Shown here: piece after piece, positions 3,201 through 60,033 of the stretch
Layout: every line of letters begins with the position of its first letter
Position numbering within the stretch: the first letter of the stretch is position 1
NCBI GenBank assembly: GCA_007376385.1
Contig: VMGC01000001.1
Coordinates: forward strand, 96,001-160,000
Source of the DNA: Parcubacteria group bacterium Gr01-1014_8
Lineage (GTDB): Bacteria; Patescibacteriota; Minisyncoccia; Phycocordibacterales; UBA2100
DNA: 64,000 nucleotides
Direction of reading: 5' to 3'
Made by a program: the position numbers and the translations under genes
Notes under the pieces: model-generated
The model's database searches: none
Told to the model about the DNA's origin: nothing
Seen by the model: only the letters and a program-made list of their open reading frames with translations

Positions 3201-4145
3201 TTACCGTCCCGGCGTGGGAGACGCTTTATCTATCCAGTCTGACGCAGTGTCGGTGTCTCTTGTCGGCAAGCTTCTTGCCATTGAGTGCCCGTCAGGTACA
3301 ACAGGAACCGACGGACTGAACGCATTCGTGTTCGTGCCCCACGACGCTGCATCTGCGGGCGATGCAGAAATTGAACTGCGAATTCGTACCACATCTCCTC
3401 CATTCGTGAGTCCATTTCCGATGGAGCTACCTAGTATTACGACAACAGTGTCCGAAGGAATATTCCATTTATTCTTTGTATTTTCATTTGCGACAATGAG
3501 CATGTATTTTCCGGGCGCAAGCGTTGTGTTACTTGGCAGAGTATCGGAACCTCCTGCATTTTGGATGATCCAGCCTGAAAGATTTACCGTATTCCCAGTG
3601 CCGTTGTACAACTCCACCCATTCATTATCAGGATCGTCTCCATGTGCCCAGTCGACATCGTAGTAAATTTCATTGATCACAAGCTTCGGTGTCTCCGGAG
3701 GCGGCACAGGACTTGGCGATGGAGAGGGAGATGGCGAAGGTGACGGACTCGGGCCTGGGCTTGGACTTGGTGATGGATTTGGCGGCGGCCTGTATGCTGG
3801 CGCAGCCGGACCGCTCGAGCCCATCATCATTATGGAAATAGCAGGCTGCACATAAATGGGACTGACGGACCACAAGCAGTCATATGGAATACCCGTTAAC
3901 CCTAATAGCCACTGTCCTACATTGCGCGGCGGTCCGAACTGGTACGTTCTTGTCGAGCGCGTCCACACATAATCTCCGGGGACTGGCGGTGAGAGCCTTG
4001 TAAAAATTGTTTCGTTGTAGCAGACGTGATAGACCGTGATGCGCCCGCCGAACGGAAATGCAAGCGCGGGGGCGCTGAACAGCGCCCAGAAAAGCAGAGA
4101 CATCAATATGAACAAGGAAAGCTTCGACGCTAAAGCCATATGCAT
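3201..4145 (-). CDS. Secreted protein with PSPSPS low-complexity linker and C-terminal lamin-tail-domain (LTD)-like fold
   Basis: N-terminal signal/TM (LSLFILMSLLFWALFSAPALA), (PS)n repeat, VINEIYYD...EWVELYNGTGNTVNLSGWII LTD-like signature. Confidence 0.6.
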   Translation of the reverse strand: MHMALASKLSLFILMSLLFWALFSAPALAFPFGGRITVYHVCYNETIFTRLSPPVPGDYVWTRSTRTYQFGPPRNVGQWLLGLTGIPYDCLWSVSPIYVQPAISIMMMGSSGPAAPAYRPPPNPSPSPSPGPSPSPSPSPSPSPSPVPPPETPKLVINEIYYDVDWAHGDDPDNEWVELYNGTGNTVNLSGWIIQNAGGSDTLPSNTTLAPGKYMLIVANENTKNKWNIPSDTVVVILGSSIGNGLTNGGDVVRIRSSISASPADAASWGTNTNAFSPSVPVVPDGHSMARSLPTRDTDTASDWIDKASPTPGR

Positions 4146-4283
4146 AGTCTAGCATCCACAAAATTACTCGATGCTCTACGCCGTGAGATAGGTGTAGATA
4201 TCGCTCTAAGCGAGTTTAACCGCGTCACAACAAAAAACTGTATATAACAAAACCTCACCTATATCTCATGGGGTATAATAGTT

Positions 4284-14569: not shown

Positions 14570-15619
14570 ATGATGCCAATGTCATCGCGGTTGTTCTTCA
14601 GTATTCCGGCGTTCGCTCTTTTGTTACTTTTTGCTGCGCCCGTATACGCACAATACATCCTTCCTCCTTCTGCTGACCCAATATTATTCAAGCTTAGTCC
14701 TTCGAATCCCGAGCCCGGCTCAATCGTCCATATTTTTGCAAATAGTCTGACATTTGACCTCAAAAAGACTCACGTAACATGGTACGTAAATGACGCTCTG
14801 CTACTTGAAGGCGACGGTCTTACGGAAGTTGATGTGACGCTTGGCTCAACAGGTTCTGCAACTCACGTCATTGCTCTCGCTGAGAAAGACGGCGAGACGC
14901 TGGCCAGCGCAGAAGTATTCATGCGCCCCGCAGAAGTTGATCTCTTGTGGGAAGCGAATTCATATGTTCCCCCCTTCTATAAGGGGAAACATCTCGCTTC
15001 ACCAAATTCGGTAGTTCGTGCAGAAGCCTATGCGCGATTGCGCGATCAAGAGGGAAATCTGATACTGCCTTCCGAAATCGAGTATACATGGCACCGTAAC
15101 GGCGCACTGCTCGCGTCCCAATCCGGCCGAGGGAAATCTTACGCCTCTTTCCCTGCTCCGCTCCTATTCGGAAGCGACACAATATCAGTCGAGGTAACCT
15201 CGATAGATGAGAGTGTGAGTGCTAGCGCGACAACTATTATTCCCTCCGTGGACCCATTTGTCGTCCTCTATCAGGAACATCCTCTGTTTGGGATCTTTTA
15301 TCACGCAGCTGTTGCACGTGCTGCATTCCTGCCAGACGTCGAAGCGACGTTCGTTGCCATTCCATATTTTGCGAGCAGCATCACGAGCCACTCCGACGCA
15401 AGACTATTATATGCCTGGCGCGTGAACGACAGGCCAATAACAGTGGATGGAGCAGAGCCTCATCGCTTGACCATCAATGCTGAAAATTCAACGGGAGAAG
15501 CGCACGTCGAAGTCGCTGTTTCGCACCTCACTAACTACTTTATGGACGCTCGCGGAGCGTGGGACATAGCATTCGACAGAATACCGGGCGGGGACCCATT
15601 CTCCACAAACGGACTATGA
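14570..15619 (+). CDS. Secreted hypothetical protein
   Basis: Signal peptide MMPMSSRLFFSIPAFALLLLFAAPVYAQ. Stop overlaps next start (ATGA). Confidence 0.5.
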   Translation: MMPMSSRLFFSIPAFALLLLFAAPVYAQYILPPSADPILFKLSPSNPEPGSIVHIFANSLTFDLKKTHVTWYVNDALLLEGDGLTEVDVTLGSTGSATHVIALAEKDGETLASAEVFMRPAEVDLLWEANSYVPPFYKGKHLASPNSVVRAEAYARLRDQEGNLILPSEIEYTWHRNGALLASQSGRGKSYASFPAPLLFGSDTISVEVTSIDESVSASATTIIPSVDPFVVLYQEHPLFGIFYHAAVARAAFLPDVEATFVAIPYFASSITSHSDARLLYAWRVNDRPITVDGAEPHRLTINAENSTGEAHVEVAVSHLTNYFMDARGAWDIAFDRIPGGDPFSTNGL

Positions 15620-16980
15620 TTCATACGGATATTTCCCGCATATTCAAGTACGCAAGTATCGGGCTCATCTTCGTTCTTATTATAGGGCTTGGCGGATGGT
15701 ACATATACTTGCGCACGCAAACATCATCAATTGACGCGGCGTCAAGCGGACGCGGGTTCCGCGCGAGCATTCCCACTTCAAGTTCGCTGGGGAGTACTTT
15801 CACCAACATAATTTCCGGATTCAGAAGAACCCCCAGTGAAGCGAGCGAAAATCCGCCAGGAATAAGCCCGCAAAGCTTTTCGAGTGGTATTTCTAACTTT
15901 TCCGAAGGCGTAAAAACTGCGTTCGGTAACTTGATATCAGGACTCGGCTCCCTCGTCCCTGGTTCCGCAAGCTCAACGCCGATAAAACAAACCCCTCGTC
16001 TTTGGCAGGTGCAAAAAAGCCCCGTCGCTGGATTCAGGTTCATCGCTGCAACAACGACAACGCTTCGCTTTATGGAACGCTCAAGCGGCTATATTTTCGA
16101 CGTGAACCCGGCGACAGGGAAAACAACGCGAGTAACAAATACTCTTATCCCGAAAGTATATGATGCACGGTTCGCCAGGGACGGTTCTCCGGTTATAAAA
16201 ACTCTTGAAAACGACGTGCGGACAACCTATAGCGCGACATTAGCATCAAGTTCGAACGAAACTCTTGCCACACTCGTTCTAACGCCGCTAGGAAATAACG
16301 TGGCAGATGCAGTACCAAACGCTACATCACGCGAGCTTCTCTCGCTCATCGAAAGTGAGAATGGATCCTCTATTGTGCGCTCAGGATGGAACGGCTCTAA
16401 ACCAACGACGCTCTTTAGCTCATCGCTCTCGGGATGGAGAATGTACTGGACCTATGACAACAAGGTCTACATCGCGCAAAAAGCGGCGACAGGAGTCCCA
16501 GGTAACGCGTACGAACTTCTTGGCAATGGAGAACTTGTTCCACTAGCGCGTTCTGTTTCGGGGCTCACGATAGTGCCAAAAGCAACTTCTACTGCTCTGC
16601 TTATTGCTTCTGATGCTGGCGTTGTGTCTACCCTTGTCAGGCCAAATGCTGACACAGCGTTCATAATACTACCCGTGAAGACGATAGTCGACAAATGTCT
16701 ATGGGCTCCAGGAAATAATCTGATCGCGTATTGCGCAGTGCCATCGAGCATTCCTTCAAAACAATTCTTGGATGAGTGGTATCGAGGGGAGATACATACG
16801 GCTGACTCGTGGTGGCGCGTTGACGCGAGCGCAGGCTCGGCGCAATTGCTGTTTTCGCCCGCGCGCGAGAGCGGCTCTTCGCTTGATGCGGAAACCCCGA
16901 GAATAGACAATAGCGGGACGTACATAGCATTCCTCGATTCACATGACAAGTCACTGTGGATACTGCGCATCAATGAATAG
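15616..16980 (+). CDS. Membrane-anchored hypothetical protein, possibly beta-propeller-like
   Basis: Start MIHTD with ATGA overlap, single N-terminal TM (IGLIFVLIIGLGGWYIYL), Ser/Thr-rich linker, long extracytoplasmic domain. Confidence 0.5.
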   Translation: MIHTDISRIFKYASIGLIFVLIIGLGGWYIYLRTQTSSIDAASSGRGFRASIPTSSSLGSTFTNIISGFRRTPSEASENPPGISPQSFSSGISNFSEGVKTAFGNLISGLGSLVPGSASSTPIKQTPRLWQVQKSPVAGFRFIAATTTTLRFMERSSGYIFDVNPATGKTTRVTNTLIPKVYDARFARDGSPVIKTLENDVRTTYSATLASSSNETLATLVLTPLGNNVADAVPNATSRELLSLIESENGSSIVRSGWNGSKPTTLFSSSLSGWRMYWTYDNKVYIAQKAATGVPGNAYELLGNGELVPLARSVSGLTIVPKATSTALLIASDAGVVSTLVRPNADTAFIILPVKTIVDKCLWAPGNNLIAYCAVPSSIPSKQFLDEWYRGEIHTADSWWRVDASAGSAQLLFSPARESGSSLDAETPRIDNSGTYIAFLDSHDKSLWILRINE

Positions 16981-38777: not shown

Positions 38778-38848
38778 CCCCTGGTAGCTCAATGGTAGAG
38801 CAGCTGCCTTTTAAGCAGTTGACGGAGGTCCGATTCCTCCCCGGGGGA
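38778..38848 (+). tRNA. tRNA-Lys (anticodon TTT)
   Basis: Cloverleaf folds by hand: acceptor cccctgg/ccggggg, D arm gctc-aatggta-gagc, anticodon arm gctgc-cttttaa-gcagt, T arm ggagg-tccgatt-cctcc. Closely resembles E. coli tRNA-Lys. Confidence 0.7.
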
Positions 38849-39024
38849 AAGTTTTTTAAACTTCACACGGGAGAAGCGTGCAATGCACGCTTCGTGAAGA
38901 ATCGGACGCCGGAGCGATGTTTTGTCAGCAGACAAAACCGCGAGGCGGTGCCCAGACAAACTTTTGCGACGGCAAAAGTTTAGTCGCGGGAGATTCCTCC
39001 CCGGGGGAAAGTTTTTTAAACTTT
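38849..39024 (+). other. tRNA-linked structured element copy 1: ~145-nt hairpin-rich segment closed by a 33-bp direct duplicate of the tRNA-Lys 3' end
   Basis: Direct repeat gattcctccccgggggaaagttttttaaactt at 38832-38864 and 38992-39024. Internal conserved motifs acgccggagcgatgt, accgcgaggcggtgcccagac, agtcgcgggaga shared with copy 2. Confidence 0.6.
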
Positions 39025-45224: not shown

Positions 45225-45299
45225 TGGTGCCCTCGGCAGGAATCGAACCTGCATTTCTTCCTTCGCAGGGAAGTGTCCTATCCATTGAACGACGAGAGC
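45225..45299 (-). tRNA. tRNA-Arg (anticodon GCG), CCA encoded
   Basis: rc folds: acceptor gctctcg/cgagggc, D arm gttc-aatggata-ggac, anticodon arm cttcc-ctgcgaa-ggaag, T arm gcagg-ttcgatt-cctgc, 3' acca. Confidence 0.6.
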
Positions 45300-45985
45300 G
45301 GAGCGCCAGCAATCTTTTCCTGAATCGCGTACGCAAAGCCGAGTATCTCCTTTCTTATACTGCTGTCAAGGTAACAGATAAAACAGAGACCCATGAAATT
45401 CTGTCGGAATTTCCTCATCTTACTTCTCGGTTTGATCCAAATCTTGCCAGTTTGAGATAGCGGAATTTTTGTTAGTTTTGACCAGTAGTTCTTCGTCTTT
45501 TCTATATCGTGGTAGTGATGGACATGAATCCGCAATCGTAACCTTTTTTCGTCGATCGTGTAACACTTTCGGAGCAAAGCCATGTAAAGGAATATCATTT
45601 TAGGATCGGTGTTTGCGAAGCGGAGTCCCGAAACCTTGTTGTGTTTTGTCCCCTCCGCCCAATACAGCATCGCAAGAAGAGATTTCATATATGTCATATC
45701 TTTGTGCGTGATTAGTTTTGCCATTTCTTTTCCGCGCAAAACATAAACCTTGTCACGTTTTTCTTTTGCGGCTCGTAGAGAAGAGGCCGAGATTGTACGG
45801 GCACGTTTGAGATGTTCCAAGCGCAATGTTTCGGTAAATACTCCGGGGTATTTATGACCAAGCCATGTACACAATGTGCTCCTTGGTATCGACAGTTCTC
45901 TTTGAATTTGCAAATATGATTTTCCACTTCTGCGCAATTTTGCGGCAGTTTCTTTTACTGCTTCAGAATAAAAAGTACCACGCAT
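45278..45985 (-). CDS. HTH + LAGLIDADG-like (single-motif) putative homing endonuclease / DNA-binding protein
   Basis: N-terminal HTH KSYLQIQRELSIPRSTLCTWL. LAMLYWAEGTK...GLRFANTDPKMIFLYMALLRK resembles a degenerate LAGLIDADG motif and its following helix. 3' end overlaps tRNA-Arg 5' end by ~22 nt. Confidence 0.45.
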   Translation of the reverse strand: MRGTFYSEAVKETAAKLRRSGKSYLQIQRELSIPRSTLCTWLGHKYPGVFTETLRLEHLKRARTISASSLRAAKEKRDKVYVLRGKEMAKLITHKDMTYMKSLLAMLYWAEGTKHNKVSGLRFANTDPKMIFLYMALLRKCYTIDEKRLRLRIHVHHYHDIEKTKNYWSKLTKIPLSQTGKIWIKPRSKMRKFRQNFMGLCFICYLDSSIRKEILGFAYAIQEKIAGAPLSSFNG

Positions 45986-48542: not shown

Positions 48543-48628
48543 GGAGGGGTCGCATAGCGGTCTAGTGCAGCGGTCTTGAAAACCGCCAGGTCTAATAGGC
48601 CTCGCGAGTTCGAATCTCGCCCCCTCCG
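48543..48628 (+). tRNA. tRNA-Ser (anticodon TGA)
   Basis: Acceptor ggagggg/cccctcc, anticodon arm gcggt-cttgaaa-accgc, long variable arm ggtct-aat-aggcc, T arm gcgag-ttcgaat-ctcgc. Confidence 0.7.
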
Positions 48629-48638
48629 CAGAAAACGT

Positions 48639-52997: not shown

Positions 52998-53290
52998 GAG
53001 ATATTCATGTGAAATCATTGCGGGAGACGTACAGGCTTGCGCATGAACCAGAAAGCATGCGACGTCTCGCCGATGTGTATTGGCTGTTCATCGTCTGTAT
53101 AGGTACGCTTGCTATGCTTGGCAGCGTAGGGTACGGCATGTGGTTGCTCTTCGTGCCGCCGAGCCGGGAAGTGTCAGAAGCGGTTGTTGGCAGCGGTCGC
53201 ACATCCGGGTTTGATAAAGCGGAACTGCAAAAAGCTGTTCAGGAATTGCAGAAGCGGCAAGATGAGTTCAATGCGATGATGACAAACTAG
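52994..53290 (+). CDS. Small single-TM protein (PilP-like?)
   Basis: ATGA overlap with pilO. TM VYWLFIVCIGTLAMLGSVGYGMWLLF. Confidence 0.35.
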   Translation: MRDIHVKSLRETYRLAHEPESMRRLADVYWLFIVCIGTLAMLGSVGYGMWLLFVPPSREVSEAVVGSGRTSGFDKAELQKAVQELQKRQDEFNAMMTN

Positions 53291-53318
53291 GGTTAGAATT
53301 GAGTGTTATAATCCTCGG

Positions 53319-53627
53319 ATGCCATACAAATATCGAAAAGATTTGTACGCTGCTCAAAAGAGGCATCGTATACGAGTACGAGAAAAACTGCTCGGATTTC
53401 TTAGTACGAAACAGTGCATCGATTGCGGCGAGAAAGATCCAATTGTTTTGGATTTTGATCATATTGATAGAGCGAGTAAATCCAGAAATGTTGCGGGATT
53501 TTTATCGGGGCATTGGTCTTGGGAGTCTGTTCTAACAGAGATTCGTAAATGCGAAATCAGATGCGCCAATTGTCACCGGCGAAAAACCTATCATCAATTC
53601 GGTTCTTTTGGTAGAACTATCAAGTAG
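53319..53627 (+). CDS. HNH endonuclease
   Basis: CIDCGEKDPIVLDFDHIDRAS...CANCHRRKTY HNH/zinc motif. Ends at first nt of tRNA-Arg. Confidence 0.75.
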   Translation: MPYKYRKDLYAAQKRHRIRVREKLLGFLSTKQCIDCGEKDPIVLDFDHIDRASKSRNVAGFLSGHWSWESVLTEIRKCEIRCANCHRRKTYHQFGSFGRTIK

Positions 53628-53698
53628 CCCCCGTAGTTTAATGGATAAAACAGCGGACTTCTAAGCCGTTGATCGAGGTTCGATTCCTCGCGGGGGCA
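53627..53698 (+). tRNA. tRNA-Arg (anticodon TCT)
   Basis: Acceptor gcccccg/cgggggc, D arm gttt-aatggata-aaac, anticodon loop cttctaa (one A.G mismatch in stem), T arm cgagg-ttcgatt-cctcg. Confidence 0.6.
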
Positions 53699-53720: not shown

Positions 53721-53793
53721 GGGCGGTTAGCTCAGTTGGTAGAGCAACCCCTTTACACGGGGAAGGTCACAGGTTCGAGTCCTGTATCGCCCA
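53721..53793 (+). tRNA. tRNA-Val (anticodon TAC)
   Basis: Acceptor gggcggt/atcgccc, D arm gctc-agttggta-gagc, anticodon loop tttacac, T arm acagg-ttcgagt-cctgt. Confidence 0.7.
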
Positions 53794-53960
53794 CAAAATA
53801 GTAAACTATTTTGTGGCGGTAAGTGCGCAAACTGATTTGCGCACGTCAGGACGAGAACGCCGGAGCGATGTCGCGCGAGGACGCGCGACCGCGAGGCGGT
53901 GCCCAGACCGAGGCGAGCGGCGGCGAGCGGAGAGTCGCGGGAGAGTCCTGTATCGCCCAC
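53794..53960 (+). other. tRNA-linked structured element copy 2: ~150-nt hairpin-rich segment closed by an 18-bp duplicate of the tRNA-Val 3' end
   Basis: gagtcctgtatcgcccac at 53777-53794 and 53943-53960. Same three conserved motifs as copy 1 in the same order. Hairpins gtgcgcaaactgatttgcgcac and gtcgcgcgaggacgcgcgac. Confidence 0.6.
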
Positions 53961-54451: not shown

Positions 54452-54521
54452 TCAGGGGGCCTCTTTTTATTTGTCCACAACTGGTAGACGCTATATACTT
54501 GAGTTATGTTATATTTGTGCG

Positions 54522-55199
54522 ATGGGGAAGCGAGGACCCAAGCCTGGATTCAAAATTACACGTCGTGTCTCAGAGAAATGGACGCCGGAATTAGCATATG
54601 CGATCGGGCTTCTTGCGACAGACGGTTGTCTTGCGCGGCACCAGTCGCTAATTGATCTGACGTCAAAAGATCAGGAGCAATTGAAGAATTTCTCAAAGTG
54701 TATTGGAATTCCACTTTTCATCGGCACGAAATTTGGTAGTCACCATAAGGGCGTATATTACAGAGTTCAATTTAAGAATCTCATCTTCTATAACTTTCTC
54801 CTCTCCGTTGGTCTGACGCCGGCAAAATCGAAAACGATGGGAGCGCTTGGGGTTCCGAAAGAATATTTCTGGGACTTTCTTCGCGGATCTTACGATGGTG
54901 ATGGATGTTCATATTCATATTGGGATCCACGATGGAAATCGAGTTTTATGTTTTACACGAGTTTTGTTTCCGCGAGTCGAGAGCATATTGATTGGTTGCA
55001 AAAAGAGATTTTTGCGCGGCTCAAAATCACTGGGCACATCACGCAGGCTAAAAGAAATATCTTGTACCAACTTAAGTACGCAAAAAGTGATTCCCTGAAG
55101 TTACTGAAAAAAATGTATCACTCGAGTAAAGTTATTTGTCTTTCGCGAAAAAGATTGAAAATAGAGCGAATTTTGAGTACAGTTAGCGAGAAGCTGTAA
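54522..55199 (+). CDS. Free-standing double-motif LAGLIDADG homing endonuclease
   Basis: LAYAIGLLATDGCL (motif 1) and FLRGSYDGDGCSY (motif 2). Lies between rplS and tRNA-Leu. Confidence 0.75.
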   Translation: MGKRGPKPGFKITRRVSEKWTPELAYAIGLLATDGCLARHQSLIDLTSKDQEQLKNFSKCIGIPLFIGTKFGSHHKGVYYRVQFKNLIFYNFLLSVGLTPAKSKTMGALGVPKEYFWDFLRGSYDGDGCSYSYWDPRWKSSFMFYTSFVSASREHIDWLQKEIFARLKITGHITQAKRNILYQLKYAKSDSLKLLKKMYHSSKVICLSRKRLKIERILSTVSEKL

Positions 55200-55208
55200 A
55201 GCTTTGAT

Positions 55209-55293
55209 GCGCAGGTGGCGAAATTTGGTACACGCACTACCTTGAGGTGGTAGCGCCCTAACGGGCATGGGAGTTCGAGTCTCCCCCTGCGCA
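55209..55293 (+). tRNA. tRNA-Leu (anticodon GAG)
   Basis: Acceptor gcgcagg/cctgcgc, anticodon arm ctacc-ttgaggt-ggtag, long variable arm, T arm gggag-ttcgagt-ctccc. Confidence 0.7.
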
Positions 55294-55476
55294 CAGAATT
55301 GGACTCTTTGAGTATTTTTCTCGAATCTGTCGTTGTTTTGCGGCGTTTTTTGGCGGTTCTAACATCGTCTAATCCACAGGAGGTTGAAAATTGCAACTTT
55401 TTGAAAATAGCCCCAACTATAAAAGTGTTTGGGCGGTTCTAACTGTCTTGGCAGATTTCCTATAAGATATCTAAGT

Positions 55477-56334: not shown

Positions 56335-56544
56335 ATGAAAGTTGAATTTGAAAAAGAGACGGATGGTCGCTGGATCGCAGAAATACCGGAGTTGCCAGGA
56401 GTTATGGCGTATGGCAAGACAAAACAGGAAGCTCAGCGAAAAGTGTATGCCGTGGCTTTACGCACCCTCGCCGATACGGTAGAGCGTGGCACTACTCCGG
56501 CACCTGTCTCTCGAATCTTCAAGTATGGAATGGCCAGCCGTTAA
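56335..56544 (+). CDS. hicB: HicB-family antitoxin (UPF0150)
   Basis: MKVEFEKETDGRWIAEIPELPGVMAYGKTKQEAQRKV matches HicB N-terminal RNase-H-like fold. Confidence 0.7.
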   Translation: MKVEFEKETDGRWIAEIPELPGVMAYGKTKQEAQRKVYAVALRTLADTVERGTTPAPVSRIFKYGMASR

Positions 56545-56734
56545 GGCTTCGAAGGTTCTTAAGGCGCTTATTAATCTCGGCTGGAACATCAAGCGACAGA
56601 AAGGCTCACATCGGATTTTAGGAAAGTCGGGCTGGAAAGATATTACGTTTGCTTTTCATGATAGAGAAGAAATAGGGCCGCGTATGCTCGCCCGTATTGC
56701 AAAACATACTGACTTAACACCGGAAGATTTATAA
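56525..56734 (+). CDS. hicA: HicA-family mRNA interferase toxin
   Basis: KASKVLKALINLGWNIKRQKGSHRIL...ITFAFHDREEIGPRMLARIAK dsRBD-like HicA signature. Overlaps hicB by 20 nt. Confidence 0.7.
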   Translation: MEWPAVKASKVLKALINLGWNIKRQKGSHRILGKSGWKDITFAFHDREEIGPRMLARIAKHTDLTPEDL

Positions 56735-59326: not shown

Positions 59327-59824
59327 GTGGCTCTTCTGAACTGCATTGTATGTGACAAGGAATTCAAAAGAAAACCTTTTCTCATACGCCGCAGTGGAGG
59401 TAAATATTGCTCAAATACTTGCCATTATTCGGATGCCCGCACTGGTAAAAAGATTTCCTGCTCAACTTGCGGCAAAGAGGTCTACAGGACTCCACGCAGA
59501 CTTAAACTCTCAAAAAGTAAAACTTATTTTTGCAACAAATCCTGCCAAACGTTATGGCGGAATCAATACTTTGTTGGGCGGAGACATAAGAACTGGATCC
59601 ATGGACGTGCTGCGTATCGCACAGTGCTCGCTCGAATAGGCCGAGAGAAAATATGCGAATCGTGTAAGACAAAAGATACTCGTGTTCTTGCAATTCATCA
59701 TATTGATCGAGTAAGAACGAACATTGATCCAAGCAATCTGGTGTGGCTTTGCCATAATTGCCATTTCCTCCTTCATCATTATGATGTGGGACGAGAGCGT
59801 GGTTTACTGAGATCGCATTCTTGA
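59327..59824 (+). CDS. HNH endonuclease with N-terminal Cys-rich zinc-ribbon repeats
   Basis: CIVCDKEF...CSNTCHY...CSTCGKEV...CNKSCQ then HHIDRVRTNIDPSNLVWLCHNCHFLLHH. Ends 4 nt before tRNA-His. Confidence 0.7.
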   Translation: MALLNCIVCDKEFKRKPFLIRRSGGKYCSNTCHYSDARTGKKISCSTCGKEVYRTPRRLKLSKSKTYFCNKSCQTLWRNQYFVGRRHKNWIHGRAAYRTVLARIGREKICESCKTKDTRVLAIHHIDRVRTNIDPSNLVWLCHNCHFLLHHYDVGRERGLLRSHS

Positions 59825-59828
59825 TGAT

Positions 59829-59902
59829 GGTGGTCGTAGCTCAACTGGTAGAGCTCCTGGTTGTGGTCCAGGCGGTTGTGGGTTCAAGTCCCATCGATCA
59901 CC
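59829..59902 (+). tRNA. tRNA-His (anticodon GTG) with encoded G-1
   Basis: G-1 at 59829, acceptor gtggtcg/cgatcac, discriminator C, anticodon arm cctgg-ttgtggt-ccagg, T arm gtggg-ttcaagt-cccat. Confidence 0.7.
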
Positions 59903-60033
59903 CTGATATTGGTGAAAGAAATATGAAGCGGGAGCGTCTGTACACACGGACACTTTTACCGTTCTGCTATAATGGGGTCAAATAGTGGCCCTAATCGTAG
60001 CCTTATAAATTATTAAGCTTATATAATTACTCT

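Follow-up and report, generated by a model that had tools for sequence, protein, structure and literature searches.

The 64,000-nucleotide (nt) stretch analysed here, hereafter the window, comes from the chromosome of Parcubacteria group bacterium Gr01-1014_8, a member of the Patescibacteria with a tiny genome (contig VMGC01000001.1, positions 96,001 to 160,000) and contains four open reading frames (ORF1–ORF4) that are each placed directly 5' of a transfer RNA (tRNA) gene. The four ORFs are probably free-standing homing endonuclease genes (HEGs) belonging to four families, each of which would be specialised on the 5' leader of one tRNA gene. Phage tRNA clusters are already known for this kind of arrangement, of which the window presents a chromosomal variant.

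Seven tRNA genes were identified in the window by ARAGORN, all of which (7/7) were also recovered by Rfam, and four of these genes have a nuclease-like ORF as their 5' neighbour. ORF1 (45278–45985, minus strand, 235 amino acids (aa), protein G01um10148_135), predicted to contain an N-terminal helix-turn-helix (HTH) and one LAGLIDADG-like domain, overlaps the first 22 nt of tRNA-Arg(GCG) (45225–45299, minus strand; Rfam score 63.7 bits), so that its TAG stop is that of the D-loop GGATAG. ORF2 (53319–53627, plus strand, 102 aa), a predicted HNH endonuclease, ends on a TAG whose last base is also base 1 of tRNA-Arg(TCT) (53627–53698, plus strand), and tRNA-Val begins 22 nt further on. ORF3 (54522–55199, plus strand, 225 aa), a predicted two-motif LAGLIDADG endonuclease, lies between rplS and tRNA-Leu(GAG) (55209–55294, plus strand; Rfam score 50 bits) and stops 9 nt before the tRNA. 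ORF4 (59327–59824, plus strand, 165 aa, GTG start) contains two CxxC zinc-ribbon (TRASH-like) units followed by a C-terminal HNH domain and is separated by 5 nt from tRNA-His(GTG) (59830–59903, plus strand). All four ORFs (4/4) thus share the strand of the partner tRNA and lie immediately 5' of it, within a range from a 22-nt overlap to a 9-nt gap. An earlier sequence-only reading of this DNA had described the four pairings, including the overlap of ORF1 with the 5' end of its tRNA and the end of ORF2 on the first tRNA base, and these descriptions hold; the positions given for ORF3 and ORF4 were likewise correct, whereas their spacings (10 and 4 nt) are revised to 9 and 5 nt.

The tRNA genes are intact and uninterrupted, and Rfam detected no group I or group II intron in the window. 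ORF1–ORF4 lie outside introns and inteins and are directly flanked by housekeeping genes. Pfam scans of 44 further window ORFs revealed no other homing-type nuclease gene. If nuclease genes were placed at random among the ~71 non-overlapping ORFs, of which seven occupy a slot immediately 5' of a tRNA, the chance of finding four out of four in such slots is C(7,4)/C(71,4) = 3.6e-5.

Judged from its motifs and profile matches, ORF3 is a bona fide two-motif LAGLIDADG enzyme. It matches Pfam LAGLIDADG_3 in two stretches with 27.1 bits (cut-off 22.5) and the PADLOC 'HEase' (homing endonuclease) model at 1.4e-5, and the profile of its nine-member family matches I-Tsp061I at 1.3e-7 as well as I-CreI, I-DmoI and I-AniI. 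The LAGLIDADG motifs of ORF3, LAYAIGLLATDG and FWDFLRGSYDGDG, each end in an acidic residue plus glycine, and D34/G35 and D127/G128 are invariant in 9/9 family members. The Pfam scores of ORF2 (HNH, 17.0 bits) and ORF4 (HNH_3, 20.2 bits) are under the cut-offs of 21.4 and 24.8, respectively; direct reading of both sequences finds the complete CxxC...(D/H)H...N...CxxCH motif, in the form CIDC...DFDHID...N...CANCH in ORF2 and CESC...IHHID...N...CHNCH in ORF4. A phage protein annotated as an HNH endonuclease, JimJam gp109, has 51% identity (2e-28) to ORF2, and ORF4 matches the HNH domains of IscB (2.2e-5) and ZorE (3.7e-5). The two TRASH-like units ahead of the HNH domain bear out the initial description of ORF4 as an HNH protein with zinc ribbons. 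NCBIfam contains no family for ORF1, ORF2 or ORF3, and phmmer searches of the single ORF1 and ORF3 sequences against PDB sequences gave nothing useful, so that family profiles were needed. The LAGLIDADG and HNH folds named in the sequence-only reading therefore stand above the Pfam cut-off for ORF3 and as full motifs with sub-threshold scores for ORF2 and ORF4, and no LAGLIDADG sequence match was obtained for ORF1. All four proteins are predicted to be nucleases.

ORF1 is assigned with moderate confidence, from family conservation and structural modelling, as an HTH joined to a single LAGLIDADG-like domain. Pfam detects a weak HTH only, and the ORF1 family profile matches PDB sequences solely through the N-terminal HTH, which is of the Sleeping Beauty/resolvase type. 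The family carries the invariant motif MLYWAEGxK and has nine invariant residues; E111 and G112 of MLYWAEG are invariant in 30 diverse members. AlphaFold models of the full-length protein and of the isolated C-domain are both confident (predicted local distance difference test score, pLDDT, ~89.5), and the modelled motif stands at the end of a helix formed by residues 97–111. The HTH and the conserved motif helix with its Glu-Gly agree with the earlier description of ORF1 as an HTH plus single-motif LAGLIDADG-like protein, whose LAGLIDADG part found no significant sequence match to LAGLIDADG models. The best structural match is WhiA, a domesticated LAGLIDADG plus HTH transcription factor in which the catalytic acidic residues have been lost. 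The two differ in build: WhiA combines two degenerate LAGLIDADG domains with an HTH at the C-terminus, whereas in ORF1 an HTH at the N-terminus precedes a single domain, whose Glu-Gly is invariant. ORF1 is also not universally present. A profile search of 1.84 billion cluster representatives retrieved 3980 clusters of the ORF1 family at E<=1e-10, and with moderate confidence this is a large, unannotated LAGLIDADG-like family worth experimental attention.

The evidence supports a family-specific pairing of nuclease and tRNA that holds across the phylum and reaches into the tRNA clusters of phages. A motif scan of one genome per species identified at least 581 ORF1 relatives, all of them in Patescibacteria-type metagenome-assembled genomes. 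In ~72 of the 80 loci kept, a sample chosen for ORF1 presence, the position of the ORF1-type stop relative to a tRNA falls between −62 and +50 nt, and the tRNA is nearly always downstream on the same strand. When every ORF of at least 80 aa ending at a tRNA 5' end in those loci was clustered, the ORF1 family had 74 members, whose partners are tRNA-Arg(GCG) in 40 cases, Arg(TCT) in 20, Arg(CCG) in 3 and Arg(CCT) in 2; the remaining partners are Ser, Lys(CTT), Trp, Tyr, Ala and Gly, with one or two cases each. Several loci have two ORF1 paralogs before two different tRNAs. ORF2 has more than 1000 homologs of ~103 aa that are about 70% identical everywhere, and all of those whose context was looked up (4/4) end −5 to +15 nt from tRNA-Arg(TCT). 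Relatives of ORF3 are found 5' of tRNA-Leu(GAG) in 8 loci, ending 1–34 nt ahead of it, and one distant relative precedes tRNA-Leu(TAA). ORF4 homologs occupy the 5' side of tRNA-His in L014, L100, L114 and L121 (L numbers designate the loci and genomes compared), and ORF4 paralogs that of tRNA-Ser(TGA) in L033 and L045. Altogether, such pairings recur in more than 100 independent loci. The view of tRNA genes as preferred landing pads in this genome is supported by this recurrence and was too narrow in scope, since the pattern spans the phylum and also includes phages.

Stops located inside tRNA genes cluster at +10, +15, +22/23 and +38, with the stop codons falling on tRNA positions 8–10 (TAG), 13–15 (TAA), 20–22 (the D-loop TAG) and 36–38 (TAA following the TCT anticodon). 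Overlap with a tRNA of this kind is almost never seen for ordinary genes. Annotation pipelines usually trim or discard ORFs running into tRNA genes; such ORFs are likely to be under-annotated. Gene calls of a public Logan contig lack the ORF2 HNH gene (L002, 302–610, equivalent to window 53319–53627).

Several related arrangements were observed beside these families. A fifth nuclease-like family, comprising an HTH and a two-motif LAGLIDADG_3 domain (286 aa; L006, 14931–15791), starts directly 3' of tRNA-Lys(TTT) on the same strand; it is also found in L007, L012, L021, L030, L035 and L050, and no trace of it was found in the window, whose tRNA-Lys site is without it. In L046 (~3270–4275), a 330-aa ORF with an HTH and two LAGLIDADG motifs overlaps tRNA-Ser(GCT) by 15 nt and forms a cluster apart from ORF1 and ORF3. 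In five loci (L008, L009, L010, L038 and L045, the last being the closest host; locus position ~10700), an ORF1-family gene adjoins the 3' end of an oppositely oriented tRNA-Arg(GCG), so that the gene reads the tRNA antisense and the tRNA is inverted relative to the usual arrangement; C-termini such as ...AGNRT in these loci are translated from the T-arm.

The order of tRNA genes is conserved in Parcubacteria (His, Leu(GAG), Val, [Leu(CAG)], Arg(TCT), Ser(TGA), Arg(GCG), [Arg(CCG)], Lys), and sites can therefore be compared across genomes. An unbiased syntenic sample was provided by 30 metagenome loci selected solely by a neighbouring PilM of 50–66% identity. In this sample an ORF2-type gene is present at 1 of 19 distinct tRNA-Arg(TCT) sites, an ORF3-type gene at 2 of 10 tRNA-Leu(GAG) sites with remnants at 3 more, an ORF4-type gene at 2 of 5 tRNA-His sites, and an ORF1-type gene at 1 of 3 tRNA-Arg(GCG) sites. 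Over all loci, the 63 tRNA-Arg(TCT) sites carry an ORF1-family gene in 20 cases, ORF2 in 6 and none in 37; the 27 tRNA-His sites carry ORF4 in 5, an ORF1-family gene in 2 and none in 20; and 8 of the 21 tRNA-Leu(GAG) sites carry ORF3, leaving 13 without. The sequence-only reading had proposed comparing related genomes, in which ordinary housekeeping genes would be conserved in fixed positions; most syntenic sites proved to be empty. Patchy presence combined with the same tRNA wherever a gene is present is the pattern expected of site-specific mobile genes, which these comparisons support.

The interval between rplS and tRNA-Leu exists in three states. Occupied alleles (window, L102 and L114) share, upon alignment, a common 5' leader of ~70 nt. 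Empty alleles (L088, L097 and L111) consist of the rplS stop, ~15 nt and the tRNA. Remnant alleles (L094, L099 and L105) retain only the last 60–75 nt of ORF3, including a promoter-like TTGAAA-17-TATAGT. This series is the cycle of invasion, decay and loss expected for homing endonuclease genes. A copy of ORF1 in L003, presented as degenerate and split by gene calls, is an intact full-length ORF in the DNA and is not evidence of decay.

Judged from pairwise identities with PilM as a gauge of host divergence, the identity of ORF2 and ORF1 is decoupled from that of their hosts. ORF2 homologs are 69–77% identical to the window copy in L119, L121 and L031, where PilM is just 29–33% identical. For ORF1 the identity is 48% in L045, the closest host (PilM 73%), but 72–75% in the more distant hosts L006, L029 and L090 (PilM 56–60%). 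The sequence GTAGTTTAATGGATAAAAC is found in 6/6 ORF2-bearing tRNA-Arg(TCT) genes versus 10/37 empty ones (hypergeometric p = 0.0013, the relatives not being independent); D-arm variants (TTCAATGGATAGAAC) also occur. The difference hints that the D-arm may be part of the ORF2 target, or may be co-converted.

Homologs are also abundant in phages. In IMG/VR, the ORF2-like genes are distributed over at least 80 contigs; 10 contigs, mostly of huge phages, contain ORF1-like genes. The IMG/VR loci with homologs are extremely dense in tRNAs (386 in 509 kb); of 90 homologs on viral contigs, 53 have a tRNA no more than 150 nt away, and at least 20 immediately precede tRNA-Arg(TCT) on its 5' side. Furthermore, 475 GenBank phage records contain ORF2 homologs, which are annotated as HNH endonuclease or endonuclease VII.

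The ORF2 cassette has a 29-nt 5' leader (53290–53318, plus strand) of the form GGGTTAGAA-N8-TATAATCC-N4, in which TATAAT (53307–53312) ends exactly 6 nt before the ATG. The arrangement GGGTTAGAA-N8/9-TATAATCC-N4-ATG/GTG is common to six genomes (window, L092, L118, L119, L121 and L122) of distant lineages, which include a complete Campbellbacteria chromosome; the mobile unit would therefore comprise the leader together with the ORF. The ORF2 messenger RNA (mRNA) is probably leaderless. The leader of the ORF3 cassette (54452–54521, plus strand), conserved among occupied alleles, contains TTGTCC-17-TATACT at 54471–54499 and a −10-like hexamer within TGTTATATT (54507–54515) that ends 6 nt before the ATG.

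Promoter-like motifs are also present within the 3' ends of ORF1, ORF3 and ORF4. The element in ORF1, TTGACA-16-GATACT (45342–45369, minus strand), is located ~40 nt upstream of tRNA-Arg(GCG), is conserved in L003, L006 and L029, and represents a candidate cassette-borne tRNA promoter. The element in ORF3, TTGAAA-17-TACAGT (55155–55183, plus strand), is homologous to the one that survives in the remnant alleles. The motifs and their retention in remnants suggest that the cassette supplies the tRNA promoter. An overall promoter scan gave 19 hits, not above the 16.4 expected from shuffling. There is no space for a terminator between ORF and tRNA, so the two are almost certainly co-transcribed; terminator-like hairpins are located after the tRNAs. 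Cleavage of such a transcript by RNase P, whose RnpA subunit is encoded in the genome, would remove the stop codon of ORF1 and ORF2, and this might conceivably act as a brake on nuclease expression.

These features can be assembled into a model, in which the target sites and homing by gene conversion are inferred from the sequence patterns. The enzyme would recognise conserved DNA of its own tRNA gene and the adjacent leader in a genome without the HEG, and would cut or nick it. Recombinational repair from a HEG-bearing copy, provided by DNA taken up from a relative or by a phage, would then place the cassette in between the intact tRNA and the gene upstream of it; the genome encodes RuvA-like, RuvB and RuvC proteins and a type IV pilus operon. 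The cassette would be minimal, consisting of a short promoter or leader and the ORF, and would lie close to the tRNA, the ORF often stopping on conserved tRNA positions, and ORF and tRNA would therefore be transcribed as a single unit. The tRNA promoter would, in some families, reside in the 3' end of the ORF. Following fixation the HEG would decay, and a promoter-bearing 3' stub could persist.

Free-standing homing endonucleases beside tRNA genes are textbook knowledge for a few phages, namely T4 (SegB) and T5 (heg genes). T5 hegC and hegD, which we take to be F-Tfl nicking homing endonucleases, are free-standing HNH genes that lie among tRNA genes on the same strand and read into the 5' part of the downstream tRNA, with overlaps of 23 nt for hegD/tRNA-Gln2 and 14 nt for hegC/tRNA-Ser2 in the T5 reference record. 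They differ in being located in a phage with a dense tRNA cluster, whereas the genes described here stand at single essential tRNA genes of a bacterial chromosome. HegD was rejected as a member of the ORF4 family, its match being confined to the HNH core (E 0.012). JimJam gp109, from a Streptomyces phage, lies between two tRNA-Pro genes, with its stop 10 nt into the downstream one, an arrangement shared with L092 and L118; it differs in its partner (tRNA-Pro, not tRNA-Arg(TCT)) and in its size of 142 aa with an extra N-terminal zinc finger, and is known by annotation.

The mechanism proposed for ORF1–ORF4 is that of T4 SegB, a free-standing GIY-YIG homing endonuclease of a phage tRNA cluster that was shown experimentally to cut the tRNA genes of relatives without segB; a conserved motif of tRNAs serves as its recognition site, and its action causes the tRNA region to be inherited preferentially (PMC2330249). 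SegB belongs to another catalytic family and targets the T-psi-C arm common to many tRNAs, whereas each family described here apparently addresses one tRNA species, at the tRNA 5' end. A further likeness is to the LAGLIDADG enzymes carried by rRNA and tRNA introns of Patescibacteria and archaea, to which the I-Tsp061I match of ORF3 points; ORF1–ORF4 differ in lying beside uninterrupted tRNA genes and not inside introns. Patescibacteria are rich in intron-borne homing endonucleases, and a survey of their tRNA introns covers intron-borne HEGs only (PMC13011429). The literature searched contained no description of tRNA-adjoining free-standing homing endonucleases as a systematic, family-specific feature of bacterial chromosomes.

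Several points weigh against the interpretation as homing endonuclease genes. Among near relatives, nuclease identities are little above those of the hosts, so that recent transfer of ORF3 and ORF4 is only putative. The LAGLIDADG assignment of ORF1 is graded only moderate: neither Pfam nor NCBIfam gives a LAGLIDADG match; hhalign of the ORF1 and ORF3 families places the motifs in register at a non-significant probability of 0.3% (E 0.19); and Foldseek of the ORF1 model against PDB returned weak OmpA-like and IspF-like matches only, none of them significant and none a LAGLIDADG protein. The absence rate of ORF1 is based on few unbiased sites (2 of 3 empty, plus a handful over all loci), the other loci having been selected for ORF1, and its heavy conservation and frequent occurrence at tRNA-Arg(GCG) are also compatible with a host-useful protein. 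Sigma-70 motifs with at least 10/12 matches occur in the last 75 nt of 7/74 ORF1-family ORFs versus 2/369 control windows, a weak enrichment in which most positives are close relatives and the loci are not independent. The remnant at tRNA-Leu could alternatively be a native leader through which the ORF reads, although the invariant C-terminal LSRKRLKI helix encoded there makes this less likely.

The ORFs might instead encode domesticated, host-useful proteins, with ORF1, for example, regulating tRNA-Arg transcription or acting as an RNA chaperone or maturase of the co-transcribed precursor, and with adjacency reflecting an operon. This is most plausible for ORF1, whose best structural match is itself a domesticated LAGLIDADG protein, and would fit the strictly same-strand 5' placement without room for a terminator, the strong sequence conservation (the invariant residues of ORF1, ~70% identity in ORF2) and the presence of ORF1 at most sampled tRNA-Arg(GCG) genes, the sample being biased. 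It is nevertheless unlikely. Four unrelated folds or families share the same position, all four are absent from most syntenic relatives, remnant alleles exist, and paralogs stand at different tRNAs within one genome. The Glu-Gly at the catalytic position of ORF1 is invariant, whereas WhiA has lost its catalytic acidic residues; homologs reside in phage tRNA clusters, and the pairwise identities of ORF1 and ORF2 are incongruent with those of their hosts.

We consider it quite improbable that the nucleases are passengers, carried by larger integrative elements or prophages with tRNA attachment sites or left behind by them. tRNA genes are classic integration sites, the window does contain small elements flanked by duplicated tRNA 3' ends, and ORF1 and ORF2 have relatives in phages; the insertions, however, are single ORFs of 0.3–0.75 kb with conserved, defined boundaries, they lie 5' and not 3' of the tRNA, and housekeeping genes are their direct flanks, with no integrase, att duplication or other phage genes around the ORFs. 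A role as defence or toxin nucleases, such as anti-phage HNH effectors profiting from strong tRNA promoters, appears more improbable still. Such a role would agree with the resemblance of the ORF4 HNH domain to ZorE and with the constitutive expression that tRNA co-transcription would give, but the PADLOC matches do not reach beyond the generic HNH core, partner defence genes are lacking, ORF3 matches a 'homing endonuclease' model, and the specificity of each family for its tRNA would be unexplained. Chance adjacency or spurious ORFs can practically be dismissed: compact genomes do put many genes beside tRNAs, yet the arrangement has a chance of ~4e-5 within the window, the ORFs show conservation at the protein level, and the reproduction of the pairings in more than 100 independent loci already refutes this explanation.

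The window is otherwise an ordinary chromosomal stretch, with genes including those for the RNase P protein, YidC, RuvB, RuvC, the PilM operon, NusG, L11 and thymidylate kinase. The three tRNA genes outside the four pairings are tRNA-Lys (38778–38848), tRNA-Ser(TGA) (48543–48629) and tRNA-Val (53721–53794), all on the plus strand. A GC-rich element of ~130–150 nt directly follows tRNA-Val (53777–53960) and tRNA-Lys (~38828–39022) in the window and tRNA-His in L116 (~15512–15700). The tRNA 3' end is repeated directly on its two sides, over 18 nt (GAGTCCTGTATCGCCCAC) in the case of tRNA-Val and ~33 nt in that of tRNA-Lys. Blocks GCCGGAGCGATG, CGCGAGGCGGTGCCCAGAC and AGTCGCGGGAGA are common to the copies, and between them are hairpins whose stems differ by compensatory changes. 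The element has no Rfam match and looks like a structured non-coding mini integrative element with the T-loop and 3' end of the tRNA as its att site. A pair formed by a HicA toxin gene and a UPF0150/HicB-like gene is located at 56335–56734, ~1 kb downstream of tRNA-Leu (L001 gene calls). These Patescibacteria have tRNA-Arg(GCG) instead of the usual bacterial tRNA-Arg(ACG). The 3' CCA is encoded in some tRNA genes only and varies between close relatives; tRNA-Arg(GCG) of the window ends in GCACCA, and the L006 copy is without it.

A broader picture, which is conceivable and at present rather doubtful, is that of a guild of 'ORF-only' selfish nuclease cassettes in tRNA leaders, which take their stops from the tRNA, are throttled by RNase P, become 'addictive' through promoter capture and are shuttled by phages. 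If it is true, the guild would comprise at least five families, including an unrecognised HTH–LAGLIDADG-like family of ~4000 clusters at 50% identity, that live on the leaders of single-copy essential tRNA genes. RNase P would decapitate the stop codon of the mRNA and so throttle nuclease expression, captured tRNA promoter function would cause complete loss of a cassette to be selected against, and phage tRNA clusters would serve as the shuttle between lineages. The homing endonuclease interpretation of ORF1–ORF4 would in itself account concretely for 'hypothetical proteins' of Patescibacteria that number in the hundreds to thousands. It would also offer natural triplets of alleles (occupied, empty and remnant) for reading off target sites, together with a collection of compact nucleases, probably of very high specificity, for which the targets, the tRNA genes, are known beforehand. 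For the biology of these organisms, it points to a likely route of gene flow between bacteria of the candidate phyla radiation (CPR) and their phages.

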